From NCBI GenBank assembly GCA_937921685.1, contig CAKZUF010000003.1, positions 2,215-66,214 of the forward strand: 64,000 nt of DNA. The letters run 5' to 3'. The notes below the pieces were generated by a model, which did not search any database, was not told the origin of the DNA, and worked only from the letters and a program-made list of their open reading frames with translations. Source of the DNA: an uncultured archaeon (lineage in GTDB: Archaea > Thermoproteota > Nitrososphaeria_A > Caldarchaeales > Calditenuaceae). The translations under genes and the position numbers were made by a program. Shown here one piece after another: positions 3,575-47,113 of this stretch; position 1 is the stretch's first letter; each line of letters begins with the position of its first letter.

Positions 3575-3620
3575 AACTAATGGTCACAGCAACCATCCAG
3601 CTAAAAAACTTTGACTATTT

Positions 3621-4229
3621 TTAGGAAGAGAGGAGCCGCTTGATTATCGCCCTACGTATCTCTCCACGCATCCTCTCAAGCCTAGCCTCGACTGTATTGT
3701 CATAAATCATAGACCCATCACTTCTAATTACCCTAACCCCGCCCACACAGTCTAGCGGGCTCTCCGATAACCTAATCTTTATGCCCAGCTCTTTTCCCAG
3801 CTCTCCCGCAAGCTCCCGCACCTGCCGCTGATCCTCTCTCGAACACTCAACCACAACCTCATCACCCCCCACAAACTCCAAGGCCTCCCTCAGAAGGAGG
3901 ATGAGGGCTTGGCGATACTCCCCGCTCCTCTTTAGAGAGGGTATGCTGTCTAAGGCCTCCTTAATGATCGTATCGACACACTTCTCAACCGACTCTAAGT
4001 ATTCGCGCCTAGCCTCTAGCATAGCCTGGCTGACAAGCCTCATCCTCAAGGCAGTAGACTCTCTCTGAATAGCTTGTGAAGCAGCTGCAGCTTGTCTGCC
4101 AAGCTCGTCAGCGCCCTCCCTAAGTCGCCTCAAACCCTCCTCTTCAATCTCCCTGATCTTCACCCTGAACTCTGCTAGCGCGTCCTCAACAACACTCCTC
4201 AAAACATCCTCAAGCTTCATCGGAGGCAT
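3621..4229 (-). CDS. atpE: A1AO ATP synthase subunit E
   Basis: 202 aa, charged alpha-helical protein. Position is immediately upstream of atpA on the same strand, and composition fits subunit E. Confidence 0.6.
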   Translation of the reverse strand: MPPMKLEDVLRSVVEDALAEFRVKIREIEEEGLRRLREGADELGRQAAAASQAIQRESTALRMRLVSQAMLEARREYLESVEKCVDTIIKEALDSIPSLKRSGEYRQALILLLREALEFVGGDEVVVECSREDQRQVRELAGELGKELGIKIRLSESPLDCVGGVRVIRSDGSMIYDNTVEARLERMRGEIRRAIIKRLLSS

Positions 4230-4256
4230 AGCCCATCAACCGCTTAGCCAGCCATG

Positions 4257-4553
4257 TTAAATACCTAGTATCCTCCTAAGCATTGCCCTGTAATCCACTT
4301 CAGAGGGCTTTTCACCCGGTCTCGGGAGTAGATAGACCACGGGTTTGGGGAGAGTGGAGCTGAGCTGTCCGACCCTGCTGGCAAACTCGGGACCAAACTC
4401 GTCACTCACAAGAATCAGACCGATATCAGGGTCCCTGGAAAGCTCCTGAATGACCCTTAGAGCCTCACGCCCATCCTCCACAACCACGCCCCCCATCCCC
4501 GCGATCCGGAACGAAGCGACGAAAAGCTTACCACCCACAGCCACGGCCCTCAT
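4257..4553 (-). CDS. atpF: A1AO ATP synthase subunit F
   Basis: About 98 aa from the internal Met (MRAVAVGGKLFVASFRIAGMGGVVVED...ILVSDEF). Typical V/A-type subunit F fold and size, located upstream of atpE. Confidence 0.55.
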   Translation of the reverse strand: MRAVAVGGKLFVASFRIAGMGGVVVEDGREALRVIQELSRDPDIGLILVSDEFGPEFASRVGQLSSTLPKPVVYLLPRPGEKPSEVDYRAMLRRILGI

Positions 4554-4575
4554 CCAATCACCCACACACGCATCC

Positions 4576-4590
4576 ACACTTTATATTTTC
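4576..4590 (+). promoter_or_regulatory. Archaeal TATA box (ctttatatttt) about 25-35 nt upstream of tRNA-Ala
   Basis: The AT-rich box spacing relative to the mature tRNA 5' end fits archaeal promoter geometry. Confidence 0.3.
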
Positions 4591-4611
4591 CTCGAGCCAA
4601 GCTTGACTATG

Positions 4612-4683
4612 GGGCCGGTAGATCAGCGGTAGATCACCCGGTTTGCGCCCGGGAGGCCGCGGGTTCGAATCCCGCCCGGTCCA
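4612..4683 (+). tRNA. tRNA-Ala (anticodon TGC), no intron
   Basis: Hand-folded cloverleaf. Acceptor GGGCCGG/CCGGTCC with the G3:U70 alanine identity pair. D-stem GATC/GATC. Anticodon stem CCCGG/CCGGG with loop TTTGCGC (anticodon TGC). T-arm GCGGG-TTCGAAT-CCCGC. Discriminator A. CCA is not encoded. Confidence 0.85.
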
Positions 4684-4862
4684 CTTCTTCGAAAATCGTG
4701 GTCGTCGCCAATTGGGTAAGGGGGATTTATGAATCGCTCTCGGAGAGCCTTTCAGTGGCATAGATTGTGTGCTTGCTCGGGTTATTCAAAGCTCTATCCA
4801 TGATAGGTTATCAGAATGCTTAAATGTTAGATATTTTTTAGAGATGCGAGGCGTTTGATGAT

Positions 4863-5714
4863 ATGAGTCTAATCGCGAGCGGCTATCTTACCCCTACCAA
4901 TGTGCAAGAGGCTGTGTCGCTTAAGAGAAAGCTAAGGGATAAGGCACTAGTCGTGGCTGGCGGAACAGCCGCCGTACAGCTGATCAGCAAAATGATAATC
5001 GAGCCTCAAGCTATAATATCGCTTGAAAAAGTCCCGCTCGACTATGTGAAAATACGGTCGAATAGTGTTGAGATAGGCGCAACAACTTCTATCGCGAAGC
5101 TGATTCAGAGTAGAGGTCTTCCGAATGCGTTGAAGAAAGCTGCAGAAAGTATACATGGACTTGCGCTCAAAGATATGGCCACTGTTGGCGGCAACATCTT
5201 CACACCAGCGCCCGCAGGAGACTTAGCAACAGCTCTCCTCTCCCTAGATGCGGTACTCATTCTAAGAGGGGGTAGGGGCATGAGAAGTGTGCCGCTATCT
5301 AACTTCTACAGAGGCCCGCTACAATTCAACATCAAACCAGACGAGATACTGACAGCAGTCAAGATTAGCAGGCCGCCAAAGCTTTCCGCCTTCCTAAAGC
5401 AGACCCCTTGGAAGTATAGTGGCCCAACAATCGCCTCTGTCTCCGCTAGCTTAGATTTGGACAGAAATGGTAGAACTCGCAGAGCTATGGTGGCATTAGG
5501 AGGCCTGACTACACACCCATACCGCGCTAAGAAGGTGGAAAAAATGATTACAGGTAAAAAACTATCCGAGCAACTTATCGACGGAGCGGCCCAGCAGTTA
5601 ACAGATGGTGTGGAGGTTATCGACGATGCTCTGGCATCTTCATGGTATCGGAGAGAGCTCGCACAGGTTCTTTTCAAAAGGATTTTATATAACTTCATCT
5701 CTGGGGGTGATTGA
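4863..5714 (+). CDS. Molybdenum hydroxylase (CO dehydrogenase/xanthine dehydrogenase family) FAD-binding medium subunit, CoxM-like
   Basis: 283 aa. FAD-binding PCMH-type domain (ALVVAGGTAAVQL...). Immediately followed by the 2Fe-2S and Mo-binding subunit genes. Confidence 0.7.
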   Translation: MSLIASGYLTPTNVQEAVSLKRKLRDKALVVAGGTAAVQLISKMIIEPQAIISLEKVPLDYVKIRSNSVEIGATTSIAKLIQSRGLPNALKKAAESIHGLALKDMATVGGNIFTPAPAGDLATALLSLDAVLILRGGRGMRSVPLSNFYRGPLQFNIKPDEILTAVKISRPPKLSAFLKQTPWKYSGPTIASVSASLDLDRNGRTRRAMVALGGLTTHPYRAKKVEKMITGKKLSEQLIDGAAQQLTDGVEVIDDALASSWYRRELAQVLFKRILYNFISGGD

Positions 5715-5715
5715 A

Positions 5716-6171
5716 TTGAGAATAAGATTCAAACTGGATGGTCAAGACGTCGAGGTTGACGTAAAGCACACAGACACCCTCCTGAAAGTGTTGAAGGACA
5801 GGATAGGTGTGGGTTCTGTGCATTTTGGATGTGGAGAGGGGTCGTGCGGCGCGTGTATGGTCTTGATCAACGGGAGGCTCAGGTATTCATGCTTAACCCT
5901 CGCAGGATATGTTGACGGAAAGGAGGTCACAACTGTCGCTGCCTTAGCACGCGACGGTGAATTGACTGAAATACAGAGAGCATTTCTCGAGAACGACGCG
6001 GCGCAGTGTGGATACTGCACTCCCGGAATGATCTTGACCGCCAAGGTCCTTCTTGAAAAGAACCCTTCACCCTCTGATGAGGAGTTGTTTGATGCATTGG
6101 CAGGCAACCTCTGCAGATGTACTGGCTATATTCCGATCATAAACGCTATCAAGTCTGTATCTAGGAGGTGA
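5716..6171 (+). CDS. Molybdenum hydroxylase [2Fe-2S] small subunit, CoxS-like
   Basis: Two cluster motifs: CGEGSCGACMV (plant-type) and CGYCTPGM...CRCTGY. A TTG start at 5716 is preceded by SD-like GGGGGTGA (5703-5710). An alternative GTG start is at 5707. Confidence 0.8.
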   Translation: MRIRFKLDGQDVEVDVKHTDTLLKVLKDRIGVGSVHFGCGEGSCGACMVLINGRLRYSCLTLAGYVDGKEVTTVAALARDGELTEIQRAFLENDAAQCGYCTPGMILTAKVLLEKNPSPSDEELFDALAGNLCRCTGYIPIINAIKSVSRR

Positions 6172-7538
6172 GAGGGGTCGTGTCGGATCAGTTCTCGGTT
6201 GTAGGTGCGCCTATCAAGAATGTCCAGCTGTTAGGCCACGTCACCGGCTCCACCCAGTATGTTGATGAGATATCTTTTCCGGGTATGCTTTGGGTAAAGG
6301 CTGTTCGCAGCCCGGTGGCACGCGGTAAGATCAAGAAGATTGATACTTCGAAGGCTGAAAAGCTTCCTGGTGTCGTGAGGATTATTACTGCCAAAGACGT
6401 GCCTAACAACATACACGTCAACATGGCTGTCATTGGTATAGGGCCGCCAGATGAGCCTGTTCTTCCCGAGGATGAGGTTAAGTATAAGGGAGAGGCAATA
6501 TGCCTCGTAGTAGCTAAAGACGAGGATACTGCCGCTAAAGGAGCTCAGTTGGTAGAAGTTGAGATTGAGGAGCTACCCCCAGTTCTCGACATGGAGGAGG
6601 CCCTGAAGCCTAGTGCGCCAGTCATTACTAAGTGGGGCATAAACGCGTTCATCTACGGTTCGGGAATGGATGGGGCTACTATGCCCGGTCGGCCTGGTAG
6701 GCCCTTCTTCTTGGTGAAGAGGGGAGATGTTGAGGCGGCGTTTAAAAAGGCGGACTACGTGGTCGAGGGCAGCTATCTAATCCCGCCAATAGAGCATGCA
6801 CCGATTGAGCCTCATGTATGCGTGGCTAAGCCTGAGCCGGGACAGCGACTCACAATATACACCACAACCCAGGCGCCATATTTTGTGAGGGACAATGTCG
6901 CTTCGATCCTCAAGATTCCACCTTCCAACATAAGGGTTGTCGCTCCGGCGGTGGGTGGAGGGTTCGGAGGCAAGGTGGACCCAGAATTTGAGATGCAGGT
7001 CGCTGTTGCTGCAATGTGTGTTGGGAGACCCGTTAAATGGAGATGGACTAGGGAGGAGGAGTTCACGATATCAACTACGCGTCCCGCCATAAAGATAGAG
7101 ATTCAGGACGCCCTGTCTAGCAGCGGCTTGATACTGGGGAGAAGGGCGAGACTCCTCCACGACTCAGGCGCATACACTAGAACATCTCCATACGGGGTCA
7201 TAAAATCGACTGTTAACCTCTCAGGACCATACCACATCCCCAACGTGTATTACGAGGGGTACTGTGTATACACTAATAGACAGCCCTCAAGCGCTATGAG
7301 AGGGTATGGAGTCTTCGAGGTCTCTTACGCCGTTGAGTTACAGATGGAGAGAGATGCTAGGAAACTGGGGATTGATTCTTGGGAGTTCAGGTTTAAGAAC
7401 GCCTACAGGAATGGACAAGTCACGGCTACTGGTAGGCTGATAGACGATGCGTATCTTATCGAGGTCATGAAGGTGGCGGCAGCGCTCTCAGGGGTAAGTC
7501 TGCCTCATCACTTGCTTCAGATGAGCTCATGGGGGTGA
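6168..7538 (+). CDS. Molybdenum hydroxylase large (molybdopterin-binding) subunit, N-terminal portion (CoxL/XdhA-like part 1)
   Basis: 456 aa with an aldehyde oxidase/xanthine dehydrogenase a/b hammerhead and the first MoCo-binding domain. The start is GTG at 6168 (overlapping the coxS stop) or GTG at 6180, after SD GGAGGTGA. The ORF ends at an in-frame TGA (7536-7538). Confidence 0.75.
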   Translation: MRGVVSDQFSVVGAPIKNVQLLGHVTGSTQYVDEISFPGMLWVKAVRSPVARGKIKKIDTSKAEKLPGVVRIITAKDVPNNIHVNMAVIGIGPPDEPVLPEDEVKYKGEAICLVVAKDEDTAAKGAQLVEVEIEELPPVLDMEEALKPSAPVITKWGINAFIYGSGMDGATMPGRPGRPFFLVKRGDVEAAFKKADYVVEGSYLIPPIEHAPIEPHVCVAKPEPGQRLTIYTTTQAPYFVRDNVASILKIPPSNIRVVAPAVGGGFGGKVDPEFEMQVAVAAMCVGRPVKWRWTREEEFTISTTRPAIKIEIQDALSSSGLILGRRARLLHDSGAYTRTSPYGVIKSTVNLSGPYHIPNVYYEGYCVYTNRQPSSAMRGYGVFEVSYAVELQMERDARKLGIDSWEFRFKNAYRNGQVTATGRLIDDAYLIEVMKVAAALSGVSLPHHLLQMSSWG

Positions 7539-7544
7539 AGAGGG

Positions 7545-8564
7545 TTGGCGAAGCTTAGGGGTCGGGGCATTGCCGCAATATGCTATCCAACAGGCATGAA
7601 TCTTGGTGGAGATCCTAGCCAGACAGTCATAGTAGCCCGGCCTGATGGAACGTTCGTGGTAAATGTGGCGAGCGTTGAGCTGGGTCAAGGTTTGAGGACT
7701 GTGCTATCCCAGATCGCGGCTGAAGCCATCGGCGCCTCGGTTGAAGACGTCGAGGTTAGATTTGGAGACACACAATTGGCACCCCATGATACGGGCACAT
7801 TTGCCAGTAGAACAACGCACAGGATGGGGAACGCGATTGTAAAGGCTGGACAGGAAATAAGGCAGATACTGCTGGATATAGCGTCTAAGATACTGGAGGT
7901 CTCTCCACAAGACTTAGAGATTAAGAATGGGAAGATATGGGTTAAGGGGGTGCCGGATAAGTCTATAACCGTTAGAGAGGTTGCTAGCCAAGCCCAGTTC
8001 GTCTATAACACTCCAGTCGTAGGTAAAGGCCATTATGTCAAGCCTAAAAGCATTGTAGACCCAGACACTGGAGAGTCTGACCCTCACTCGACGATGGCTC
8101 ATGGCTGTGTGGTGGCAGACGTAGAAGTCGACACTGAGACCGGGCAAGTGACTGTTCTACAACTGTTTACCGTCTACGAAGTTGGCAGAGCTATTAATCC
8201 AAAACTTGTCGAGGGCCAGATAATCGGTGGCGCGGTTATGGGTCTAGGCGCGGCCTTGAGAGAGACAGTCTATCCCCGCTACCCTCAGATAACACATCAA
8301 ACTAAGAGCTTTCGCGAATATGTCTTACCCACAGCAGGCGATATACCAAAGATTATCTACAAGATAGTAGAATCCCCAACTCCGACGGGCCCATATGGTG
8401 CTAAGGGCGTCGGCGAGATGGTGGCAAACGGCATAGCCCCAGCGATAGTTAATGCGGTCTACGATGCCATTGGCGTACAGATAACCGAGCTACCCATAAC
8501 ACCTGAAAAAGTATTAAAGGCCATAAGGGAGAAGAGTCAATCTGTTAACGAACATCGAGTATAA
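7545..8564 (+). CDS. Molybdenum hydroxylase large subunit, C-terminal portion (part 2; MoCo-binding domain 2)
   Basis: 339 aa. Same reading frame as part 1, separated only by TGA plus 2 codons. TTG start at 7545 is preceded by GGGGGTGA (7531-7538) with a 6-nt spacer. Combined length is 795 aa, typical of CoxL/XdhA. Confidence 0.75.
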   Translation: MAKLRGRGIAAICYPTGMNLGGDPSQTVIVARPDGTFVVNVASVELGQGLRTVLSQIAAEAIGASVEDVEVRFGDTQLAPHDTGTFASRTTHRMGNAIVKAGQEIRQILLDIASKILEVSPQDLEIKNGKIWVKGVPDKSITVREVASQAQFVYNTPVVGKGHYVKPKSIVDPDTGESDPHSTMAHGCVVADVEVDTETGQVTVLQLFTVYEVGRAINPKLVEGQIIGGAVMGLGAALRETVYPRYPQITHQTKSFREYVLPTAGDIPKIIYKIVESPTPTGPYGAKGVGEMVANGIAPAIVNAVYDAIGVQITELPITPEKVLKAIREKSQSVNEHRV

Positions 8565-21374: not shown

Positions 21375-22616
21375 TCACTGGCTGAGCCTACCCTGCTTAA
21401 GGGCGAAGGCGACTATCTTGCTTCTTCTCACGTATGTCTTGAGCCCGAGCTTAAGCTTCCCTTCCAAGAGGCCCAAAGCCTCGGTAAGGCTTCCACACTT
21501 AGCTGGGCTCCGCTCGAGGGCTGCGCGCACGATCTCTCTAAACCTCCAGACTCCGAGCGGTATCCAGCCCCTGTCAACCTCAAAGAAGACGATCACCCCC
21601 GCCTGAACCCCCAAACGGTTTAGATATTCGAGAATTGGCAGTCTACAGGCATAGTAGGCTCCACCCGTGTTATCGGCGTAGCTTGAGCGCCCCCACTTAA
21701 GCTCGAAGTCTGAGTAGACCTCTCCGCTCTTCACCCAACCCTCTAGGAGTTCGTACATCCAGGGAGTCGGCATCAAGACTACATAAGCGGTGTTGAAGTG
21801 GGCGCTGAAACTATAGACCCTGAAATCGCTTATAATCTTGTTGCGCTTGACGCGCCTCAAGGCTATCTTGCCTAACATGTCATCAACCGCGGTTATGCTC
21901 CATTCAGTCGGAACCAGAATCCTGTCTATCCGCCTCCCTAAGAGCCCTGCGGAGAGGAGTCTTGTGAGATAGTATTCGTCGACGCCCTGGCTTGAAAGTT
22001 TCTGGACAGCCTCTAGTGCTGGGATGTATGGGTCGTTGATTACGCGGTCAACAGGCCTAGGTATTGAGGGATTGTCGACAAGCTTGATGTACTCGACCCT
22101 TCCTGCCGGGCCGTGTGGCGCATTCCTCACACCAAGGCCCGGGACAAACCTTAACGAGCCAGTTGACAGCTTCAGCTCAAGGTCAACAGGTCGTTGGGAG
22201 GCGGAGGATTCCTGCAAAGCATCAACAATCCTAGCCGGGCTTCTGGCCAACTCTACGCGAACTCTTGTCCTGCCCATTAGGATGCTGAGCCTCATGTTTA
22301 AGAGGCTGTCTAGAGGTATCTGGAGCCAAGACCTCGGTGACTCTAGGACCCGCGGATCTATGTCGGCTGTAAGCATCATACCAGTGCCTGCGTAGACTCT
22401 GGGATACCCCCACTCGCCGACCAGTATTGTAGGGGGTGTTGGGCCGTACAGAACCCCTACACTCTTTATGGATTTAATGGCCTCTCTTATGGCATCTCGG
22501 TAGAACGGGCATTTCATAAGGCTGCAGTTCTTCGCGAACCCTTGGCAGACCTCGCAGCTGAAAGACTCTAAACCCCTCTCGGAGCCGCCCACCGACGCCC
22601 AGCTCCAGTCCTCCAC
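21375..22616 (-). CDS. Conserved archaeal hypothetical protein (possibly an NreA-family DNA-repair-associated protein)
   Basis: 413 aa. N-terminal Cys cluster (CEVCQGFAKNCSLMKC). Size and layout recall archaeal NreA, but the match is from memory only. Confidence 0.3.
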   Translation of the reverse strand: MEDWSWASVGGSERGLESFSCEVCQGFAKNCSLMKCPFYRDAIREAIKSIKSVGVLYGPTPPTILVGEWGYPRVYAGTGMMLTADIDPRVLESPRSWLQIPLDSLLNMRLSILMGRTRVRVELARSPARIVDALQESSASQRPVDLELKLSTGSLRFVPGLGVRNAPHGPAGRVEYIKLVDNPSIPRPVDRVINDPYIPALEAVQKLSSQGVDEYYLTRLLSAGLLGRRIDRILVPTEWSITAVDDMLGKIALRRVKRNKIISDFRVYSFSAHFNTAYVVLMPTPWMYELLEGWVKSGEVYSDFELKWGRSSYADNTGGAYYACRLPILEYLNRLGVQAGVIVFFEVDRGWIPLGVWRFREIVRAALERSPAKCGSLTEALGLLEGKLKLGLKTYVRRSKIVAFALKQGRLSQ

Positions 22617-22688: not shown

Positions 22689-23939
22689 TTGAACCGACCC
22701 TACATGATTTATGGGGATAGGATGACGGAGAGTCCGTGGAGACCCGCGATAATAGTAGCGGCCTCTGAGATAATGCTGAAGGGTGGAAACCGGCCCAAGT
22801 ATATGAGGCTTCTGACCAGGAACATCGCCTCCGCAGTCAGTGGCCGTGGGGCAAAGGTGTATCGTAGGCAGGCGAGGATAATAGTTGAGCCGACGGGTGG
22901 CGAAGATTCTGGGGAGCTGGCGCAACGGGTAAGCAGAATACCGGGCGTGAGGTGGGTCCGCATAGGGTATCTGATTCCGCGAGACTATGAGCTGCTCATG
23001 CGAATAGCGGTGGAGAAGGCGAGGGAGCTTAAGCCATCCCGCATAGCAGTTGAGGTGTCGCGGGCAGATAAGTCTTATCCGAAGACCTCCCTCGAGATTA
23101 TGCGAGAACTGGGTGAGCGTATAAGAAGCTCGTCTGGAGTGGCGGTGGATTTAGAGAGCCCGGAGATTATTTTCTGGGTAAATGTGCTCAACGACGTGTT
23201 CCTCTTTGGCTGGCACCGGATTGAGGGCGTCGGCGGCCTGCCTGTGGGTGCGTCTGGAAGGGTGCTGGCACTCATCTCCGGGGGGTTAGACTCGCCTGTT
23301 GCGGCTTGGCTGATGATGAAGCGTGGATGCATTGTGGATATGCTCCACATCTACGCGCTACCCACCCCGCAGGAGGCCTTATCCGAGAAGATAGGGGAGC
23401 TCTTCCTCAAGCTAAAAGAGACGAGCCCCTCCTCGAGGCTCTTCCTCGCACCATACCACCACTTCATGAGCAGCACACTCTCAGCAAAGGCTCGACTTGA
23501 ACTCGCCCTCTTCAGGAGGTTCATGCTCAGGCTCGCTGAGGCCCTTAGCCTAGAGATAGGGGCTAAGGCCATAGTTACCGGAGACTCGGTGGGCCAAGTT
23601 GCCTCCCAGACCCTCGAGTCCCTCCACGCAGCCTCCTATGGTCTACGGCTGGTTGTGCTCCGCCCACTCGCTGGCTACGACAAAGAGGAGATTATCCATC
23701 TCTCGAGGAGGCTGGGCCTCTACGAGCTATCCATCAAGGACTACAAGGATTGCTGCTCAATCGTATCGAGGCACCCCATACCTAGGCCCAGACTCGAGGA
23801 TGTGGAGGAGGAGTGGGGGAGGCTGGGGCTTGATGACGCTGTTGCCAAGACGCTAGAAGAAGTATACGTTTTTGATGGATCGCGCCTAGAGGCTTGGAAA
23901 AATATATCTACTGGGCGGCAGGACATATCGCAGGAATGA
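22689..23939 (+). CDS. thiI: tRNA 4-thiouridine synthase ThiI (THUMP plus PP-loop, no rhodanese domain)
   Basis: PP-loop SGGLDSPVAAWLMMKRG preceded by a THUMP-like region. Confidence 0.75.
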   Translation: MNRPYMIYGDRMTESPWRPAIIVAASEIMLKGGNRPKYMRLLTRNIASAVSGRGAKVYRRQARIIVEPTGGEDSGELAQRVSRIPGVRWVRIGYLIPRDYELLMRIAVEKARELKPSRIAVEVSRADKSYPKTSLEIMRELGERIRSSSGVAVDLESPEIIFWVNVLNDVFLFGWHRIEGVGGLPVGASGRVLALISGGLDSPVAAWLMMKRGCIVDMLHIYALPTPQEALSEKIGELFLKLKETSPSSRLFLAPYHHFMSSTLSAKARLELALFRRFMLRLAEALSLEIGAKAIVTGDSVGQVASQTLESLHAASYGLRLVVLRPLAGYDKEEIIHLSRRLGLYELSIKDYKDCCSIVSRHPIPRPRLEDVEEEWGRLGLDDAVAKTLEEVYVFDGSRLEAWKNISTGRQDISQE

Positions 23940-23987
23940 TGAGATTTGTCTCAGCTGAGCTGTGAAGAAACCAGCTCACCCTGACCC

Positions 23988-25607
23988 GTGGTGGATATTT
24001 CTTTGCCACCGAGTAGCTCGGCCGGAAAATGGGGCTCCGACATCGCCCATAAATATCACGAGTCGACCAAGCACAGCTATATCAGCGTCAGGATGGGCTC
24101 GGGCTTCCTTGACTTCTCCAACAAGCCATACCCGTTCAAATACTATGTAACCGGCGAGAAGCTGCAACTCCCAAGAGACTTCGAGAAGCCTGAGAGCCCA
24201 GCACTAGACGCGCTTCTGTGCAGAAAACCGACCAAACCACAGCCGACCATATCAACCAGCCTCCTAGCTTCACTCCTCTACTTCACGGCCGGGATAAGCC
24301 GCGTCGAGAGGCTTGGAGACCATTACCTCTACTTCAGGGTGACGCCGGCTACTGGCGCGCTGCACAGCACCGAGCTCTACCCCGTGATTAGCATGGCCGA
24401 GGGCTTAGAGGCGGGTGTCTACCACTTTGACCCTGGGGAGTTTGTCCTCACTAGGCTGAGGAGGGGAGACTTCAAACGGCTTCTATCCTTGGCCGTCCAA
24501 GACGAGAGTGTCTTACGCTCGAGGTTTGGTGTAGTCTTCACGGCCTGCGGCTGGAGGAATGCTTGGAAGTATAGGGAGAGGAGCTATAGACACTGGTTCT
24601 GGGACGGAGGCGCGATGGTCGCTAATTTCCTAGCGGTCGCTTGCTCATTCGGCCTCGATGCGACACTTCACGTCGGCTTTGAGGACGGGGCTGTGAACGA
24701 CCTCGTGGGCGTTGATGGCGAGGATGAGGCGGCATTCGCGGTCATAACCGTGAATGACGGAGTGGGGGCCGCTGGGGCGGAGGCCCCGGAGAGGGTGTCC
24801 GGCCCCGTCGAGGCTGTACCGGCTGCACGAATAGGCGGGCCTGTTAAATATTCTCTAATCTCTGAGACACATTCCTCGACTATGCTCCGCACCGGTGATG
24901 ACGTGGCGGCTTGGAAGAAGTCTGCAGGCCTGCTACACGGGTTGGATGGAGGTGGGGATTCGGGGCTTCCAGTCCAAATCCCCCAGCCGGCGACAACGGA
25001 GAAGAGGCTTTGGGAGGTGATTCTACAGCGCGGCTCAACCAGAAAGTTTGCGAGAAGAAGTATTGGAGCCCCCCAGCTATCTGCAATCCTCAAATATAGT
25101 TTCGGCCCCCTAAGGGTGGATTTTCTACCAGACCCCAGCGACACGCTAATCCACCCCTACCTGATCGTTAATGCGGTAGAGGGCATACCCAGCGGCTGCT
25201 ACCGATACATGCCTTCGACAGGCGAACTTAGGCTTTTGAGGAAGGGACAGTTCAGGGAGGCCGCCGGCTACCTTTGCCTAGAACAGGCCTTGGGGAGGGA
25301 TGCATCCGTCGTATTCTTTAACATGGCTGACCTCGACAAGGTCTTTGAGGTGCTTGGGGGCCGGGGGTATCGCGCAGTCCAGCTCGAGGGAGGGATAAGG
25401 CTTGGAAGAATCTATCTATCCGCCTACTCGCTAGGCCTGGGCGCAACCGGGCTAACATTCTACGACGACGACTGCGTGGAGTTTTTCTCACCCAGCTCAG
25501 AAGGCTTAGAAATGGTGACCGTTGTGGCCATAGGGCATCCGGCCTACACGCCCAGACCGGGCAGCATCAGGGCCGGGGTACTCAAACACCCAGCGAAGGC
25601 GCTCTAA
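23988..25607 (+). CDS. Two-domain SagB/ThcOx-type dehydrogenase / nitroreductase-family protein
   Basis: 539 aa. The N-terminal half starts with the YHESTKHS motif characteristic of SagB-type dehydrogenase domains. The C-terminal half has a nitroreductase-like R-x-S-x-R-K-F motif (QRGSTRKFARRSIG). Confidence 0.55.
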   Translation: MVDISLPPSSSAGKWGSDIAHKYHESTKHSYISVRMGSGFLDFSNKPYPFKYYVTGEKLQLPRDFEKPESPALDALLCRKPTKPQPTISTSLLASLLYFTAGISRVERLGDHYLYFRVTPATGALHSTELYPVISMAEGLEAGVYHFDPGEFVLTRLRRGDFKRLLSLAVQDESVLRSRFGVVFTACGWRNAWKYRERSYRHWFWDGGAMVANFLAVACSFGLDATLHVGFEDGAVNDLVGVDGEDEAAFAVITVNDGVGAAGAEAPERVSGPVEAVPAARIGGPVKYSLISETHSSTMLRTGDDVAAWKKSAGLLHGLDGGGDSGLPVQIPQPATTEKRLWEVILQRGSTRKFARRSIGAPQLSAILKYSFGPLRVDFLPDPSDTLIHPYLIVNAVEGIPSGCYRYMPSTGELRLLRKGQFREAAGYLCLEQALGRDASVVFFNMADLDKVFEVLGGRGYRAVQLEGGIRLGRIYLSAYSLGLGATGLTFYDDDCVEFFSPSSEGLEMVTVVAIGHPAYTPRPGSIRAGVLKHPAKAL

Positions 25608-25637
25608 ACGACCCTCCGCCAAGACTATAACCCGGAG

Positions 25638-26642
25638 TTGCAGAGTAAATTCGGCTTGGAGACGAGTACTAGGGTATGCGGCGTGTGTAGGGAGTCACAG
25701 CCAGTCTACAGACAGGTTTACTCGGGAGTAAGCTTCTGCGCCTCCTGCTTCAAAAAGAGTGTAGAGAAGCGTGTAAGGAAGACTATATCGAGATACAGCC
25801 TCCTGAGGGAGGATGACAGAATCCTCGTCGCAGTCTCGGGCGGTAAAGACAGTCTAAGCCTCCTCAAGATCCTCGCCAAGATTGAGAGGGAATATCCTAG
25901 GGCAAGCCTAGTCGCGGTCTCAATAGACGAAGGTATCCCGGGCTACAGGGACGAAGCCCTGAGACTCGCGGCAGACATGTGTAGGAGGCTCGGTGTCGAG
26001 CACCGCGTCTATGCATTCGAGGACCTATTCGGGATCAGCTTATCCGAGGCGATGAGTAGGGGTGTTCTAGGTCGGCTGGGACTGGGTGCCTGTTCACTCT
26101 GCGGGGTCTGGAGGAGGAAGGCCATCAGCCTGGCTGCAAGGGAGCTTAAGGCCACTGTGGTCGCTACAGCCCACACACTCGACGACATAGTCCAAACCTA
26201 TCTAATGGACATTCTCCGCGGCGAGTTCCCAAAGGCGCCAATAGGCTTGAGGCGGGAGGGAAACGGGATAATCCCACGCATAGCACCTCTTAGATTAATC
26301 CCGGAGGAGGAGGTCGTCCTTTACGCCTATCTCAGCCGCATACCCTTCCAAGAAATACCCTGCCCAAACGCCCAGAATTCTCAGAGAGACCTGGTGAGAA
26401 CCTTCCTAGCCCAGTTCGAGTCAAGATATCCCGGCTCGCTCTTTGCCGCGCTCAAAACTATTGAATCTGGAATAATGCCCCGCGAGGGGGGGCTAACACC
26501 ATGCCAGGTATGTGGTGAGCCTGCCTCCAAAGCCATCTGCCGTGCATGCGAGCTGGAGAGCCAAGTCTCCAGCCTCCTAGCTGAGAAGGGTCGACTACTC
26601 GGAGCGAATATTGGTGTAGATGATGTACAGAGCATAGATTGA
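25638..26642 (+). CDS. TtuA/NcsA (Ncs6/CTU1) family tRNA 2-thiolation PP-loop ATPase with N- and C-terminal zinc fingers
   Basis: N-terminal CGVCRE...CASCF. PP-loop VAVSGGKDSLSLL. Central CSLCGVW Cys cluster. C-terminal CQVCGE...CRACE. Confidence 0.7.
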   Translation: MQSKFGLETSTRVCGVCRESQPVYRQVYSGVSFCASCFKKSVEKRVRKTISRYSLLREDDRILVAVSGGKDSLSLLKILAKIEREYPRASLVAVSIDEGIPGYRDEALRLAADMCRRLGVEHRVYAFEDLFGISLSEAMSRGVLGRLGLGACSLCGVWRRKAISLAARELKATVVATAHTLDDIVQTYLMDILRGEFPKAPIGLRREGNGIIPRIAPLRLIPEEEVVLYAYLSRIPFQEIPCPNAQNSQRDLVRTFLAQFESRYPGSLFAALKTIESGIMPREGGLTPCQVCGEPASKAICRACELESQVSSLLAEKGRLLGANIGVDDVQSID

Positions 26643-30390: not shown

Positions 30391-30918
30391 GTGGCTGACT
30401 GGATTACCCGTCTTCCACTTGTTAGACGCGATACAGCCCCGAGAGGCGGCCGGGGTGAGTGCGCGGTCGCGGCTATATTGACTGTGGATAGCGACATACT
30501 TCTAGTCAAGAGGGGGTATAGGTCTGGGGACCCTTGGAGTAGGCATTGGGCGCTTCCAGGGGGTTTTTGGAAGGAGTCGGATGGCAACCTACTTAACACC
30601 GCTCTCCGGGAGGTTCTAGAGGAGGTGGGCGTGGGGGCGGAATACTTGAGGCTTCTGGGCTGGCTTACACCGAGGAGCCCGAGGAATAGACCAGAGTTAA
30701 CCATCTACCCTCTAGTCTTTTTAGCCGAGGAGAGGCCGCCGGTCAGGCTTGCGGACGAGCTGGAGGACTATAGGTGGGCGCCGCTTTACGGGCTGGGGAG
30801 GGGGAGGCATGTGGTAGAGACATCTCACGGACCTTCTGAGGTTGATGCATACGCCTGGGGCGATGTCGTTGTCTGGGGTCTTACATACACCATTTTAAGA
30901 GACCTTAGAGGCGAGTGA
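30391..30918 (+). CDS. Nudix hydrolase
   Basis: Nudix box GGFWKESDGNLLNTALREVLEEVGV. Confidence 0.65.
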   Translation: MADWITRLPLVRRDTAPRGGRGECAVAAILTVDSDILLVKRGYRSGDPWSRHWALPGGFWKESDGNLLNTALREVLEEVGVGAEYLRLLGWLTPRSPRNRPELTIYPLVFLAEERPPVRLADELEDYRWAPLYGLGRGRHVVETSHGPSEVDAYAWGDVVVWGLTYTILRDLRGE

Positions 30919-31581
30919 GGCCTTTATAAGCCTGAGGTATCCTCTATCACCCAGCCAGACGGGCTCCGCATCTATCCTCAACGCATTTCTGAAGAAGGGG
31001 GCGTCAACGACTAGGGTTTCATATTCTCCACCTTCACCTGCTAGGTTGAATCCATAACGCTCAGAGAGTGTGGTAAGCTGCTCCACGTACTCGCGGTTTA
31101 GTTGTCTGCCAAGCCACTCGGGCCCAAGACCGTGGGCGCTCACGGCCACTATTATGACAGAGTACCCTCTCGCCAGCACTTCCGTCATAATCTCGCGGGG
31201 CCCCACCCCCCAGATGGGCGCAACATGCCCGACACCCAAGCGGTCTGCAAGCCACTCTATCCTATCTCTCTGGTAGCGACTCGCCAGCCCCCCGCTGAGT
31301 AATCCATCAGCGCCGTAGTCTCTCACGAGGACTCGAAGAGTGTCGTAGAGTTCTTGGACCTCGACCTCCTTCCTCCCGCTGACGTCGACGTATTTGTGCT
31401 CTAGGCCCATGGCCTCTGCCTGCAGGTGTTGGACCCCTATACAGGTTGTATGGAACATCCATGAGTCTCTCTCGAGCGGGCGTGCTGTAACCAGCAGGGC
31501 TATTTCATGCCCAGCCTCTTGGGCCAGCTGGATGGAGAGTGTCGAGTCTTTCCCGCCTGTAAAGAGGGAGAGGAGGCGCAT
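30895..31581 (-). CDS. PP-loop ATPase of the MJ0570/Dph6 family (diphthine-ammonia ligase-like)
   Basis: 228 aa. N-terminal LFTGGKDS PP-loop variant. Confidence 0.55.
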   Translation of the reverse strand: MRLLSLFTGGKDSTLSIQLAQEAGHEIALLVTARPLERDSWMFHTTCIGVQHLQAEAMGLEHKYVDVSGRKEVEVQELYDTLRVLVRDYGADGLLSGGLASRYQRDRIEWLADRLGVGHVAPIWGVGPREIMTEVLARGYSVIIVAVSAHGLGPEWLGRQLNREYVEQLTTLSERYGFNLAGEGGEYETLVVDAPFFRNALRIDAEPVWLGDRGYLRLIKASLASKVS

Positions 31582-31583
31582 TA

Positions 31584-32606
31584 CTACTCCATGTTGAGGT
31601 GGTTGAGCGCCTTATTCAGTATGGCGTTGGAGACTTCGCTCCCCTTGGCGCTCCCACCCAAGTCAGGTGTAAGCACCCTTCCCTCATCGAGGACGGTTTC
31701 CACAGCCCTCTCAATAGCCTTTGAGACGCGGGATAGCCTCTCGTCCCGCCTTGACATTCCAAGCCAGCCAAGCATGTATGATGCTGAGAGTATCGTTGCT
31801 ATCGGGTTTGCATAGTCAGGGGTAAGGCTAGGCGCAGAACCGTGTACCGGCTCGAACACACCCATGTTTTCACCCACATTGGCTGAGCCTGCTAGGCCTA
31901 TGGATCCAGTGATGCCGGCCGCCAAGTCTGAGAGGATGTCGCCGAACATATTTGGTGTCAGGATCACGTCGAATATTGTTGGGTTAACGATCATCTGGTA
32001 GGCCGCATTGTCAACATACATCTCCTCCACCGCGACGCCGCCTTGGCTAAGCACCTCGAGCGCTACGTCTCGAAAGAACTTGTAGGAGGAGAGAACGTTT
32101 GCCTTGTGCACTATCGTGACCTTCCTGCGCCTCTCATTAGCCATGTTCAAGGCGACCCGCGCAATGCGCGCAGTGCCGAAACGCGTGATGACAAGAAGTG
32201 ATACCGCGTGGTCACGCCCAACATCCTCAACACCCTTATACATGTCCTCAGTGTTCTCCCTCACTATCACAAAGTCCACTCCGCTCCAGTGGGTCTTGAC
32301 CCCCCTGTACGTCTTGAATGGTCTTATGTTGGCGTATAGGTCGAGCCTCTGTCTGAGAAAAACTATCACGTCTCTGGCTGTCTCTCCTACAGGGCCCTTT
32401 AGGCACGCGTCAGAGGTTGTTATCTTCTTAAGAGAGTCGCGTGGGAGGGCCTCTCCTGTCTCGGCGGCAACCCTATCACCGGCAGGCGCCTCGACGAATT
32501 CTACGCCAAACCCCACAGTTGAGGCCAGCTCCTCAACTATTTTGACCGCCTGCCTTGTGACTACGGGCCCTATGCCGTCGCCAGGGATTACGGATATCCT
32601 ATACAT
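31584..32606 (-). CDS. 3-isopropylmalate/homoisocitrate dehydrogenase family protein (LeuB-like)
   Basis: 340 aa. Isocitrate/isopropylmalate DH family fold (IPGDGIGPVV ... NMFGDILSDLAAGITGSIGL). Confidence 0.7.
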   Translation of the reverse strand: MYRISVIPGDGIGPVVTRQAVKIVEELASTVGFGVEFVEAPAGDRVAAETGEALPRDSLKKITTSDACLKGPVGETARDVIVFLRQRLDLYANIRPFKTYRGVKTHWSGVDFVIVRENTEDMYKGVEDVGRDHAVSLLVITRFGTARIARVALNMANERRRKVTIVHKANVLSSYKFFRDVALEVLSQGGVAVEEMYVDNAAYQMIVNPTIFDVILTPNMFGDILSDLAAGITGSIGLAGSANVGENMGVFEPVHGSAPSLTPDYANPIATILSASYMLGWLGMSRRDERLSRVSKAIERAVETVLDEGRVLTPDLGGSAKGSEVSNAILNKALNHLNME

Positions 32607-34395: not shown

Positions 34396-35853
34396 TTGGC
34401 TAGGAATCTATTCCCCTGTGTGATTGGAGGGGAGAAGATTTTTTCACCCGACGGCAGGACATTCAGAGACATCAACCCCGCCGATACAGGCGAGGTTGTC
34501 GCCGAGTTCCCCCAACTATCCAGGGAAGATGCCGCCAAGGCTATCGACGCCGCGAGAGAGGCGCAGGTTAAATGGGCTTCGACCCCAGCCCCGGAGAGGG
34601 GTAGGATCCTTGTTAAAGCGGCGCAGATACTTGAGGATGAAGCTGATGAGCTGGCTAGGGTGCTGACTAGGGAGGAGGGGAAGACGCTGGCGGAGAGCAG
34701 GGCTGAGGTCGCTAGGGCTGTCAGCATCTTCAGATTCTATGGAGTCATGGGCTACAGGTTGAGGGGAGAGTTCACACCTTCAGCCGAGCCCAATACACAC
34801 CTCTTCACACTCCGCGAGCCACTAGGCGTAGTATCGATCATAACGCCCTGGAACTTCCCGATAGCCATACCCTCATGGAAGATCGCGCCCGCACTCATCT
34901 CCGGTAACGCAGTGGTCTTCAAGCCGGCGAGCTACACTCCACTGATAGGCTACAGGATAGTTGACGCCCTCCACCGCGCAGGGCTGCCGCCTGGGGTACT
35001 AAACTTCGTCACTGGCCCCGGCTCGACTGTGGGTGCAGAGCTAATCAACAGCCCCAAGGTGGATGCAATATCTTTCACAGGGTCGCTCGAGGTTGGTGAA
35101 GAGATCAAGAGGGCTGCGGGCGGGAGAAACATTAGGATTCAGTTGGAGCTGGGCGGAAAAAACCCAGCCGTAATTCTGGACGACGCGGACATGGATAGGG
35201 CGGTTGAGATGGTGGTCAGGGGTGCATTCGGCTTGACGGGGCAAGCATGCACAGCCACCAGCCGGGCAATAGTCCTTGAAAACGTCGCCGAGGAGTTTGA
35301 GAGAAAGCTGGTCGAGCGTGTCAAGAGGATCAAAGTCGGCAACGGTCTGGCGGAGGGTGTTGAGATGGGGCCGGTGGTCGGCGAGAAGGAGATGAACAAG
35401 ATCCTTGACTATATCCGGGTCGGAATCGATGAGGGGGCTAAGCTGGTCCTAGGTGGAAAGAGGCTCATGGGGCCAGAACACTCTAAGGGATACTTTTTGG
35501 AGCCCACGATATTCACGGATGTCACTCCGGATATGAGGATAGCTCAGGAAGAGATATTCGGACCTGTCCTAGCGGTTATGCGCGCCCACAGCTTTGACGA
35601 GGCCGTGGAGCTGGCAAACAAGATCGAGTACGGGTTATCTGCCTCTATATTCACGAGGAGCCTCCCAAGGGCTTTCGAGTTCATTAACCGTGTACAAGCA
35701 GGCGTTGTTAAGGTCAATAAGCCGACGACCGGCCTAGAGCCTCATGTACCGTTCGGCGGATTCAAGAAATCCAGCTACGGCATGGTCAAGGAGCAGGGCG
35801 AGGCCGCCCTAGACTTTTACACCAAGATCAAGACCGTATATCTCGGCTACTGA
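34396..35853 (+). CDS. NAD(P)+-dependent aldehyde dehydrogenase (2,5-dioxopentanoate/glyceraldehyde dehydrogenase-like)
   Basis: 485 aa. ALDH glutamate motif ELGGKNP and catalytic Cys GQACTA. Confidence 0.8.
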   Translation: MARNLFPCVIGGEKIFSPDGRTFRDINPADTGEVVAEFPQLSREDAAKAIDAAREAQVKWASTPAPERGRILVKAAQILEDEADELARVLTREEGKTLAESRAEVARAVSIFRFYGVMGYRLRGEFTPSAEPNTHLFTLREPLGVVSIITPWNFPIAIPSWKIAPALISGNAVVFKPASYTPLIGYRIVDALHRAGLPPGVLNFVTGPGSTVGAELINSPKVDAISFTGSLEVGEEIKRAAGGRNIRIQLELGGKNPAVILDDADMDRAVEMVVRGAFGLTGQACTATSRAIVLENVAEEFERKLVERVKRIKVGNGLAEGVEMGPVVGEKEMNKILDYIRVGIDEGAKLVLGGKRLMGPEHSKGYFLEPTIFTDVTPDMRIAQEEIFGPVLAVMRAHSFDEAVELANKIEYGLSASIFTRSLPRAFEFINRVQAGVVKVNKPTTGLEPHVPFGGFKKSSYGMVKEQGEAALDFYTKIKTVYLGY

Positions 35854-43623: not shown

Positions 43624-44661
43624 ATGCTGATGGCTAAAGAACTTCCACACCCTCCACACTTCGACCCGTCGCAGGCAGACAAGATCTGGCGCGTCCCGTA
43701 TCAGCAGAGGGCTGCTGAGGCGATGGAGTGGCGGAGGATATATTCAATCAAGCCAGCCTCAGCCGATGAGTTCCGAATATGCCTGATGCTCATAGACGTT
43801 CAGAATACCTTCTGCGTGCCTGGATTCGAGCTGTTTGTAGCGGGAACTTCCGGTAGGGGAGCTGTGGAGGACTGTCAGAGAGTGGCGTCATTCATCTATC
43901 GTAACCTGCCATCCATAACTGAAATAGTCGCCACGATGGATACACATCAGGCTTACCAGATTTTTCACTCAGTATTCTTTGAGGATGAGAATGGCAGGCA
44001 TCCCGATCCCTATACTCGTATAACTGTTGACGATATCAGGGAGGGGAGGTGGAGAGTCTCTGCAGAGGCGGCGAGAACAATTGGGATAAGCCCCGAGTAT
44101 CTCCAGACATATGTTAGACACTATGTTGAGACGCTGGAGAGGAGTGGGAAGTATGAGCTCACCATCTGGCCATTCCACGCAATGCTGGGTGGAATCGGCC
44201 ACTCGCTCGTCCCGCTCGTAGAGGAGGCAGTGTTCTTCCACGCAATAGCGCGGGCATCCCAGCCCGTAATGAGGACGAAGGGATTCTCCCCACTTACAGA
44301 GCACTACTCAGCCCTAGGGCCTGAGGTGAAGAGGGGGCCTGGTGGCGAGCAGATAGGGGAGAGGGATGAGCAGCTCATAAACCGGCTTCTCTCCTACGAC
44401 GCCCTAATAATTGCGGGCGAGGCTAAAAGCCACTGCGTCGCCTGGACGGTCTCGGACCTGATTGAGGCTGTGAAAGAGAGAAGACCCGAGCTCGTATCCA
44501 GAATATATTTGCTCGAGGACTGCACCTCGCCTGTAGTGGTTCCAGGCGTTGTGGACTACTCGTCCCAAGCAGACCTAGCCTTCAGAAGGTTTGCGGAGAT
44601 GGGGGCTCAGATTGTAAGATCCACTATACCCTTGGAGAGCTGGCCTAATATGCGGGTGTAG
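43624..44661 (+). CDS. Isochorismatase/cysteine-hydrolase family protein (extended form)
   Basis: LMLIDVQNTFC matches the isochorismatase-family N-terminal strand with Asp. A Cys is present later (KSHCVAW). Confidence 0.4.
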   Translation: MLMAKELPHPPHFDPSQADKIWRVPYQQRAAEAMEWRRIYSIKPASADEFRICLMLIDVQNTFCVPGFELFVAGTSGRGAVEDCQRVASFIYRNLPSITEIVATMDTHQAYQIFHSVFFEDENGRHPDPYTRITVDDIREGRWRVSAEAARTIGISPEYLQTYVRHYVETLERSGKYELTIWPFHAMLGGIGHSLVPLVEEAVFFHAIARASQPVMRTKGFSPLTEHYSALGPEVKRGPGGEQIGERDEQLINRLLSYDALIIAGEAKSHCVAWTVSDLIEAVKERRPELVSRIYLLEDCTSPVVVPGVVDYSSQADLAFRRFAEMGAQIVRSTIPLESWPNMRV

Positions 44662-46565: not shown

Positions 46566-46687
46566 GAGTACTCACGTAGCGAATTAAGGGTGGATGGTCT
46601 GTGGGCTCCACTGGACTCGAGGCTGTTGAAACTGTATAACTGGGTTAAGTAGATATAGTAGATGCGGGATAAATAGACTTGATACCG

Positions 46688-47113
46688 ATGGTCCGACAAG
46701 TTGATTTCAAGTCAGCGCCCATAGACCCTGACTTTTCAAAGAAGTTTCCAAAAACGGGCGAGCACCACGGCCACGCTGTATGGGCTGAGGGGGTTGAGAG
46801 ACCAGATGGTGAAGGAAAGCCATACCCGACAAGGCTGGGAATCCACGGCACAGCCGTGGCGGTGGATTTCGATTGCTGTGTAGCTGATGGGGCATGCATG
46901 GATGTCTGCCCCGTCAACGTGTTTGAATGGCTCCTAAACCCAGGCTTTGCAGGTACTGGGAAGGATAGAGTCATCGACCCGGAGAAGGACAAGGAGCTCT
47001 GGGAGAAGTATAGGACGGACAAGTCAGATCCTGTCAGAGAGGCTGACTGCATCTTCTGCATGGCCTGCGAGTCTGCATGCCCCGTCCAAGCAATCAAGAT
47101 AACGCCGCCATAA
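46688..47113 (+). CDS. Zinc-containing 2x[Fe-S] ferredoxin of the Sulfolobus type, with N-terminal extension
   Basis: Zn-site extension with His ligands (GEHHGHAVW...GIHGTAVAVDFD). Two cluster motifs: CVADGACMDVCP and CIFCMACESACP. Confidence 0.7.
   Translation: MVRQVDFKSAPIDPDFSKKFPKTGEHHGHAVWAEGVERPDGEGKPYPTRLGIHGTAVAVDFDCCVADGACMDVCPVNVFEWLLNPGFAGTGKDRVIDPEKDKELWEKYRTDKSDPVREADCIFCMACESACPVQAIKITPP

Follow-up and report, generated by a model that had tools for sequence, protein, structure and literature searches.

A tandem nitroreductase-fold flavoprotein and a C/D box small RNA encoded between tRNA thiolase genes in Caldarchaeales

We analysed a 64,000-nucleotide stretch of DNA (contig CAKZUF010000003.1; hereafter the window) from an Aigarchaeota/Caldarchaeales archaeon, in which a gene for a SagB-like flavoprotein lies between the genes for two tRNA sulfurtransferases, ThiI and NcsA. 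We found that this flavoprotein belongs to a widespread family of two-domain proteins typified by the crystal structure 3EO7, and that the family is linked to thiolase genes only in part of one order, the Caldarchaeales. These results suggest that the protein is probably an orphan housekeeping flavin mononucleotide (FMN) dehydrogenase, and that its position between thiI and ncsA is probably an inherited, partly co-transcribed and dispensable arrangement of that order. We also found that the first spacer of the cluster encodes a C/D box small RNA (sRNA).

A sequence-only reading of this DNA had described a tight co-directional cluster and had suggested that the flavoprotein is a redox partner in tRNA thiolation. 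The open reading frame (ORF) list contains the three plus-strand ORFs at 22689–23939, 23988–25607 and 25638–26642. The gaps between them are indeed short, although, measured from the ORF coordinates, they span 48 and 30 nt and not the 49 and 31 bp first given. The window genes are otherwise ordinary chromosomal housekeeping genes, reverse gyrase included, and the closest relatives of the window are Calditenuaceae and Nitrososphaerota metagenome-assembled genomes; these two features mark the host as a thermophilic, hot-spring member of the Aigarchaeota/Caldarchaeales.

The flavoprotein and its family

The middle gene (23988–25607, plus strand) encodes a tandem SagB/nitroreductase-fold, probably FMN-binding protein. 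It may start at either GTG 23988, giving 539 amino acids, or TTG 24003, giving 534; a GGTGG sequence stands 8 nt upstream of TTG 24003, and the database entries of the protein are 534 amino acids long. Profile searches bore out the proposal that it carries a SagB-type domain: against TIGR03605, whose cutoff is 78.4, the whole protein reached 158.6 bits, the match falling into two stretches. The N-terminal half alone scored 106.2 bits and the C-terminal half 56.3, so that the latter appears to be a divergent copy of the SagB domain that falls below the cutoff by itself. The score against TIGR04511 was far under its threshold (91 versus 240).

A twelve-member profile matched PDB entry 3EO7 from end to end (E = 9.4e-78; query residues 4–506 against chain residues 5–509), and the single sequence matched it in two stretches (E = 3.6e-44). 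This structure, from the structural-genomics centre JCSG, is the 'putative nitroreductase' Ava_2154 of Anabaena variabilis; it contains FMN and has served as the modelling template for the plant protein At1g02020. The window protein shares with 3EO7 and At1g02020 the order of the two domains and the motifs YHExTK, RxxPxxGxLY, WxY...YR, RxSTR and LCLxQ. It differs from 3EO7 in being only about 30% identical to it and in the linker between the domains, which is longer and variable in the archaeal proteins. The comparison therefore yields a fold and a cofactor, not a substrate. A literature search (SagB with tRNA or archaea, 3EO7, At1g02020 and nitroreductase-superfamily subgroups) returned no function assigned to the family; in the literature searched, At1g02020 appeared only within a persulfidation proteome list, and no SagB-like protein had been described as associated with tRNA thiolases, as the sequence-only reading had supposed.

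The next-best PDB relatives are azoline oxidases, namely ThcOx and McbC for the N-terminal half and the non-ribosomal peptide synthetase (NRPS) oxidase BmdC for the C-terminal half. Like SagB, McbC (6GOS), ThcOx (5LQ4/8PZ5) and BmdC (7LY4), the window protein combines a nitroreductase fold and a TIGR03605 match with a Lys-Tyr dyad. In contrast to the azoline oxidases of thiazole/oxazole-modified microcin, cyanobactin and NRPS pathways, its gene has no cyclodehydratase partner, no recognition domain for ribosomally made, post-translationally modified peptides (RiPPs) and no precursor peptide. The protein also differs from these enzymes in its tandem-duplicated domain, in the replacement of RxSxR by HExTKH in the N-terminal half, and in its housekeeping, pan-phylum distribution.

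We then located the conserved motifs on the two domains. The N-terminal domain carries YHESTKHS (residues 23–30), RxxPATGAL and W193-K194-Y195...Y200-R201; the C-terminal domain carries R348-G-S-T-R352 and LCLEQ. YHESTKHS is present as had been described, but its use as a SagB/ThcOx marker does not hold, because it lies outside the TIGR03605 match and takes the position at which ThcOx has its flavin-phosphate motif RRSIREY; it is instead an invariant signature of the 3EO7-like family. The nitroreductase-like motif noted earlier in the C-terminal half fared better. RGSTRKF (348–354) is the canonical flavin-phosphate motif, stands at the start of that half and is invariant in the 3EO7-like family. 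K194-Y195 in the window sequence WKYRERSYR aligns with the KY of McbC (FKYRYRGYR) and of ThcOx (WKYHDIAY). The Lys-Tyr dyad is catalytic in the azoline dehydrogenases BcerB and McbC.

To assess conservation we used an alignment of 89 sequences from many phyla (25 from Caldarchaeales and 64 from elsewhere). The KY pair was invariant (89/89), and H24/T27/K28/H29, R117, W193-K194-Y195, Y200-R201, R348/S350/R352 and Q433 were invariant or nearly so (85–89 of 89). This invariance across phyla argues for one conserved biochemical function in all lineages. We searched the alignment for residues or columns specific to the proteins linked to ThiI or NcsA and found none. The only widely conserved cysteine, and so the sole family-wide candidate to carry a persulfide, is C430 of LCLEQ (codon at 25275–25277), which is kept in all 25 Caldarchaeales sequences and in 38 of the 64 from other phyla; in 24 of the 89 family members it is replaced by Gly or Thr. 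Family proteins are 500–540 amino acids long; the search yielded more than 5348 homologues, of which nearly all align over the full length. They come from at least 595 species of archaea and bacteria, plus plants, and the lineages include Aigarchaeota, Nitrososphaeraceae, Bathyarchaeota, Acidobacteriota, Rokubacteria and Dadabacteria.

These features point to a possible mechanism. The two nitroreductase-fold halves would most likely form an intramolecular pseudo-dimer, with FMN bound through the C-terminal half's canonical RxSxR motif and the N-terminal half supplying the SagB-type Lys-Tyr dyad that acts as the catalytic base in azoline dehydrogenases. As hydride acceptor, the flavin would then take two hydrogens off a substrate, either heterocyclic or of the alpha,beta C-H type, that is presumably common to archaea, bacteria and chloroplasts.

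Linkage of the flavoprotein gene to thiI and ncsA

To examine the gene neighbourhood, we used 80 loci containing the SagB-like gene, one genome per species, from the at least 595 species, together with ten further contexts. In the window's own clade (flavoproteins down to 54% identical) the whole 11 kb around the gene is syntenic, in the order ABC transporter, Nre, thiI, SagB-like gene, ncsA, reverse gyrase and Nudix. Because the synteny extends over the whole interval, these loci are not independent evidence for an association among the three genes. The triad recurs in the same order, with gaps of 1–90 nt, in three loci (L018, L169 and L170) of a second, Caldarchaeum-type clade whose SagB-like proteins are about 45–47% identical, and there the immediate flanking genes are entirely different from those of the window clade.

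Other Caldarchaeales loci carry parts of the cluster. L016 has thiI and the SagB-like gene only, whereas thiI is missing from L012 and L168, whose synteny matches that of L016; the three share the order divergent aldehyde dehydrogenase, [thiI], SagB-like gene, PhoU-like, major facilitator superfamily transporter and PALP, so that thiI is present or absent within an otherwise conserved arrangement. In L166 an intein-containing SufB gene takes the position of thiI ahead of the SagB-like gene and ncsA. On this Caldarchaeum-type contig the SufB/SufD gene occupies 2534–4951 (plus strand), directly upstream of the SagB-like/ncsA pair, and HEPN and nucleotidyltransferase (toxin-antitoxin-like) genes are inserted downstream. 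In L017 thiI is 4.3 kb off, L167 has neither thiolase nearby, and L164 and L165 are unlinked.

Overall, ThiI or NcsA is encoded near the SagB-like gene in 11 of approximately 25 Caldarchaeales loci. Neither partner is adjacent in 14 (L004–L013, including L012 and excepting L010, with L164, L165, L167 and L168); L010 was left out of this count as too short to judge. In other phyla, neither was found near the SagB-like gene in any of 64 loci. The proposed linkage thus recurs as a full triad in a second Caldarchaeales clade, but it is missing from the 14 unlinked loci of that order and from all 64 loci elsewhere. A role in thiolation as a property of the whole family is therefore unsupported. In a rough neighbour-joining tree the unlinked lineages fall between the two linked clades, which fits an ancestral cluster that was lost repeatedly.

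A reciprocal search centred on ThiI found the SagB-like gene in none of 80 loci, 54 of which had at least 1.7 kb of downstream sequence; these loci are mostly non-Caldarchaeales and have little bearing on that order. In one of them, the metagenomic contig L097 (5147–7116), an NcsA-like gene stands directly upstream of thiI with no flavoprotein gene between. It is the sole such case among the 80, and it indicates that the two thiolases can adjoin on their own.

We also looked for a universal neighbour by clustering all ORFs within ±7 kb of the SagB-like gene in the 80 loci, and found none. The neighbours were clade-specific generic enzymes and domains: zinc-dependent alcohol dehydrogenase, aldo-keto reductase, Tag, PALP, luciferase-like (LLM-class) oxidoreductase, PhoU, CBS, KaiC and amidohydrolase. 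A recurring sulfur or Fe-S theme (SufB, CysK-like PALP, class-V aminotransferase, thioredoxin) was likewise not found, each of these genes being limited to one or two related loci. Some window genes unrelated to thiolation do recur near the SagB-like gene. An aldehyde dehydrogenase gene adjoins it in L012, L016 and L168, an isocitrate dehydrogenase (IDH)-like gene adjoins it in L017 and L167, and genes for molybdenum hydroxylase subunits lie near it in L166 and L167. This recurrence indicates that the region keeps residual synteny irrespective of function. The IDH-like and aldehyde dehydrogenase homologues adjoining the SagB-like gene in distant loci are approximately 40% identical to those of the window, and some of the recurring genes may be paralogues. 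In the window itself, an IDH/isopropylmalate dehydrogenase-like gene (31584–32606, minus strand) lies 6 kb from the SagB-like gene and an aldehyde dehydrogenase gene (34396–35853, plus strand) 9 kb from it. Separately, in three Nitrososphaeraceae loci (L025, L026 and L028) an LLM-class oxidoreductase gene follows the SagB-like gene by about 60 nt on the same strand, and similar genes lie upstream of it in the bacterial loci L066, L075 and L080.

A C/D box sRNA and a candidate promoter in the spacers

The gap between thiI and the SagB-like gene, which the sequence-only reading had passed over as plain spacer, encodes a C/D box sRNA at 23932–23986 (plus strand), a putative guide for 2'-O-methylation. 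The RNA is approximately 55 nt long and is closed by a terminal GG/CC stem. Its C box AUGAUGA (23936–23942) holds the thiI stop codon (23937–23939) and is followed by the 12-nt D' guide GAUUUGUCUCAG (23943–23954), the D' box CUGA (23955–23958) and then GCUG. The C' box UGAAGA (23963–23968), the 12-nt D guide AACCAGCUCACC (23969–23980) and the D box CUGA (23981–23984) complete it, all on the plus strand.

We found the sRNA in six genomes of the window clade (the window, L001, L002, L003, L161/L162 and L163), where it is 89–100% identical, compared with 61–87% for the flanking coding DNA. A strict pattern of its architecture occurred seven times in 1.9 Mb of collected sequence, in every case at the thiI–SagB junction, and in none of 200 shuffles of the window. 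It was absent from the triad junctions of the second clade. Approximately 15 archaeal C/D families of Rfam matched over the full length with E values from 8e-6 to 4e-4, all under their gathering scores (best match sR9, 31.9 bits versus 36); such scores are expected because the guides differ. The predicted guide targets are 5'-CUGAGACAAAUC-3' and 5'-GGUGAGCUGGUU-3', in which the fifth nucleotide would be the one methylated. We sought them in the collected loci, a few tRNAs and a viral-contig scan, a set containing no ribosomal RNA, and obtained only self-antisense or chance matches. The sequence AGCUGGUU may occur in 23S ribosomal RNA and in tRNA D-arms.

C boxes that supply the stop codon of an upstream ORF, and sRNAs co-transcribed with messenger RNAs, have been documented in Pyrobaculum and other archaea (PMC6009581). 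The window sRNA resembles the Pyrobaculum RNAs (PMC6009581) in its RUGAUGA/CUGA/UGAUGA-like/CUGA boxes, its two 12-nt guides, its length of about 55 nt and its overlap, in sense, with the 3' end of a protein gene. It differs from them in that its guide sequences are new, its host is an aigarchaeon and all of its Rfam matches are below the gathering score. The spacer leaves no room for a promoter of the sRNA, so transcription from thiI must reach to within 2–17 nt of the SagB-like start codon. This supports read-through from thiI into the flavoprotein gene, which probably occurs, and the sRNA must be excised from the thiI transcript.

The second spacer contains a candidate BRE/TATA box, CCGCCAAGACTATAAC (25616–25631, plus strand), just 3' of the SagB-like stop codon. 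Its core, CAAGACTATAAC (25620–25631), lies approximately 25–30 nt upstream of an alternative ncsA start, TTG 25656. Across six spacers the core is identical in the window and L001, carries one substitution in L002 (in the 3' flank) and three in L161, and is more diverged in L163 and L003; the spacer around the element diverges. The element suggests an internal promoter specific to ncsA. Inspection of the spacers for T-runs was uninformative, as no T5 run was present even 3' of ncsA.

The tightness of the cluster is by itself not proof of a single operon, because an sRNA gene occupies the first spacer and a conserved TATA-like box is present in the second. In the window clade the unit would comprise thiI, the sRNA, the SagB-like gene and ncsA. 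A transcript from the thiI promoter would run through the sRNA and probably into the SagB-like gene, and ncsA would probably have an additional promoter of its own. The placement of the three genes would have been inherited from a Caldarchaeales ancestor and repeatedly lost, and the flavoprotein would not be a dedicated component of tRNA thiolation.

The thiolases and the possible roles of the flavoprotein

Both flanking genes encode tRNA sulfurtransferases, as first read, and the evidence comes from profile, Pfam and PDB comparisons. The first, thiI/ttuI (22722–23939, plus strand), encodes a tRNA uridine-8 4-sulfurtransferase composed of NFLD, THUMP and PP-loop domains. TTG 22689 is where the mechanically called ORF begins; ATG 22722 is the likely true start because homologues align from residue 12. 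The protein scored 283.8 bits against TIGR00342 (cutoff 264.5), with the Pfam domains ThiI, THUMP and ThiI_fer and the SGGLDS PP-loop present. Its best solved relatives are the proteins of Thermotoga maritima (4KR6, E = 2.8e-54) and Bacillus anthracis (2C5S), rhodanese-less ThiI/TtuI enzymes with which it shares the NFLD-THUMP-PP-loop order and a catalytic Cys in xDCx. Unlike the Escherichia coli class, it stops at the end of the PP-loop domain and lacks a rhodanese domain; unlike the [4Fe-4S] archaeal class of Methanococcus maripaludis and Pyrococcus furiosus, it has no CXXC+C motif. Its only cysteines are those of RGC and DCC, and a homologue alignment contains invariant cysteines. ThiI proteins with neither feature form a class said to 'need further investigation' (PMC9825150, also the source of the class definitions). 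By its motifs the window ThiI belongs to this third class, for which the mechanism, the sulfur donor and the second catalytic group are unresolved in the literature. Upstream, an Nre (NreA-like DNA repair) gene (21375–22616, minus strand) is divergently paired with thiI; the same pair occurs in the metagenome contig L081 (ThiI 48% identical), with no SagB-like gene or ncsA downstream.

The third gene (25638–26642, plus strand) encodes an NcsA-type, [4Fe-4S]-dependent tRNA U34 2-thiolase with the PP-loop SGGKDS, N- and C-terminal zinc fingers and the motifs CSLCG and PCP. Among solved structures its closest relative is NcsA of M. maripaludis (6SCY; E = 6.5e-52, 180 bits), ahead of TtuA (approximately 103 bits, E = 1e-28). 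The two NcsA proteins are approximately 40% identical over 293 residues and share the zinc fingers, the PP-loop and the three cluster cysteines: CSLCG aligns with CSFCG, PCP with PCP, and the CxxC zinc fingers with one another. The protein scored 81 bits against TIGR00269 (cutoff 62.75). NF047749, the NCBI equivalog for NcsA, was the top family (181.2 bits, against 118 for TtcA and 110 for TtuA); the score is below the equivalog cutoff of 500, and U34, as opposed to U54, is its predicted position of thiolation.

Several observations weigh against our reading of the flavoprotein as a housekeeping enzyme and favour a lineage-specific thiolation partner, that is, a Caldarchaeales flavoprotein from which the thiolases would receive activated sulfur or reducing equivalents. 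The exact co-directional order of the triad is kept in two clades whose flavoproteins are only about 45–47% identical and whose flanking genes differ entirely. It is the only tight, co-directional, same-order block to survive between them, and such retention of order is the signature of a selected operon, not of inert synteny. Where the cluster has broken, the flavoprotein gene stays with one thiolase (L016 and L166), and the replacement neighbour in L166, SufB, is an Fe-S scaffold and so again belongs to sulfur/Fe-S metabolism. A ThiI class with no established sulfur donor or second catalytic group leaves room for a partner. The thiolases need a source of sulfur, yet no sulfur-carrier gene or desulfurase stands beside the cluster, as had been noted at the outset, and this absence extends across the whole 64-kb window: it contains no cysteine desulfurase or E1 gene, and a search of it for SAMP/TtuB-like small ORFs ending in GG returned a single, apparently spurious antisense ORF. 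The conservation of C430 in all 25 Caldarchaeales sequences fits such a role, and the missing linkage elsewhere is compatible with a lineage-specific moonlighting function. One conceivable activity of the flavoprotein is the reduction of a sulfane-sulfur source, which would provide sulfide both to the [4Fe-4S] NcsA and to a ThiI without rhodanese or cluster; another is the upkeep or repair of the oxygen-labile cluster in these aerobic or microaerobic thermophiles.

We nevertheless consider such a partnership unlikely. The family is widespread and unlinked to thiolases elsewhere, plants included, and most eukaryotes lack ThiI. Within Caldarchaeales itself 14 loci are unlinked, and thiI comes and goes inside conserved synteny. 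The alignment contains no residue specific to the linked proteins, and C430 is not invariant in the family. The region has a background of residual synteny, and no sulfur or Fe-S theme recurs in other loci. To our knowledge, no nitroreductase-fold enzyme acts in sulfur relay. Recruitment of the 3EO7-type protein in Caldarchaeales to serve a [4Fe-4S] NcsA and a ThiI devoid of rhodanese domain and cluster, as their dedicated partner for redox or sulfur supply, therefore seems to us improbable, and we favour, with moderate confidence, the orphan housekeeping dehydrogenase in an inherited position.

By analogy with systems in which a flavin oxidase accompanies an adenylating enzyme, the flavoprotein might instead dehydrogenate the product of the adjacent PP-loop adenylating enzymes and so yield a thio-modified nucleoside or metabolite, a new nucleic-acid or heterocycle chemistry that we regard as very unlikely. 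ThiI and NcsA here seem to be conventional enzymes, their tRNA-binding and catalytic motifs being complete, and this linkage is likewise restricted to part of Caldarchaeales. We know of no thiouridine derivative that needs dehydrogenation. The idea draws on the kept KY motif and on the PDB ranking, in which both halves are closest, after 3EO7, to azoline oxidases (ThcOx/McbC and BmdC). It has parallels in YcaO with SagB and in the ThiF-like TyzB with the nitroreductase-superfamily oxidase TyzC. Such oxidases are often paired with adenylating enzymes: TyzC is paired with TyzB, and OxzB is also so paired, with a pairing rate above 50% in the TyzC subcluster (PMC10404671). As in those systems, a flavin oxidase of the same superfamily is here encoded beside ATP-dependent adenylate-forming enzymes. 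The window partners differ, however, in being PP-loop tRNA thiolases and not ThiF/E1 proteins; the flavoprotein is of a different subgroup, and its pairing is found in a minority of one order.

A role as RiPP (thiazole/oxazole peptide) azoline dehydrogenase, which the NCBI label 'SagB family peptide dehydrogenase' implies, can be all but dismissed on the gene's context: the TIGR03605 score above cutoff, the KY motif and the similarity to McbC and ThcOx speak for it, but the TIGR04511 score is far below cutoff, no YcaO or other cyclodehydratase, precursor peptide, transporter or immunity gene lies within approximately 9 kb (nor any YcaO or precursor gene in the window), the spacers are taken up by the sRNA and the 30-nt gap, and in more than 90 loci from many phyla the gene is stand-alone and single-copy among housekeeping neighbours that include no cyclodehydratase or precursor.

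Further genes of the window deserve brief mention. A diphthine-ammonia ligase-like gene (Diphthami_syn_2; 30895–31581, minus strand), 4 kb downstream of ncsA, encodes a third enzyme of the adenine-nucleotide-alpha-hydrolase type, and L023 and L049 have homologues at a distance of approximately 8 kb from their SagB-like genes. The large subunit of a molybdenum hydroxylase (xanthine dehydrogenase/carbon monoxide dehydrogenase type) is split over two adjoining plus-strand ORFs (6168–7538 and 7545–8564) that align to consecutive parts of a single gene of 756–786 amino acids in L166 and L167; true splitting of the gene, its decay to a pseudogene or faulty assembly could each account for this. Two ORFs (43624–44661, plus strand, and 46645–47097, minus strand) have no Pfam match. 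The one of 150 amino acids has relatives of 51–61% identity in L164 and L006, encoded a few kb away from the SagB-like gene, and the relative in L164 gives ferredoxin-type Pfam matches.

ThiI, NcsA, the 3EO7-family flavoprotein and the C/D box sRNA are all of known kinds, represented here by new members from an understudied lineage. The sRNA is a well-supported incidental finding that corrects the anatomy of the locus and contributes a conserved guide RNA for methylation from archaea that have been little studied. The thiolase linkage, limited to part of the Caldarchaeales, is a weak, lineage-limited lead to the function of the flavoprotein, yet the cluster is one of very few genomic-context hints, if a weak one at present, for this orphan family. 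If the flavoprotein were a thiolation partner, it would be the second component of the third class of U8 thiolase and would bear on how ThiI enzymes lacking both a rhodanese domain and an Fe-S motif work and on what donates their sulfur. It would also give a first grip on the function of flavoproteins whose family is conserved between archaea and chloroplasts.

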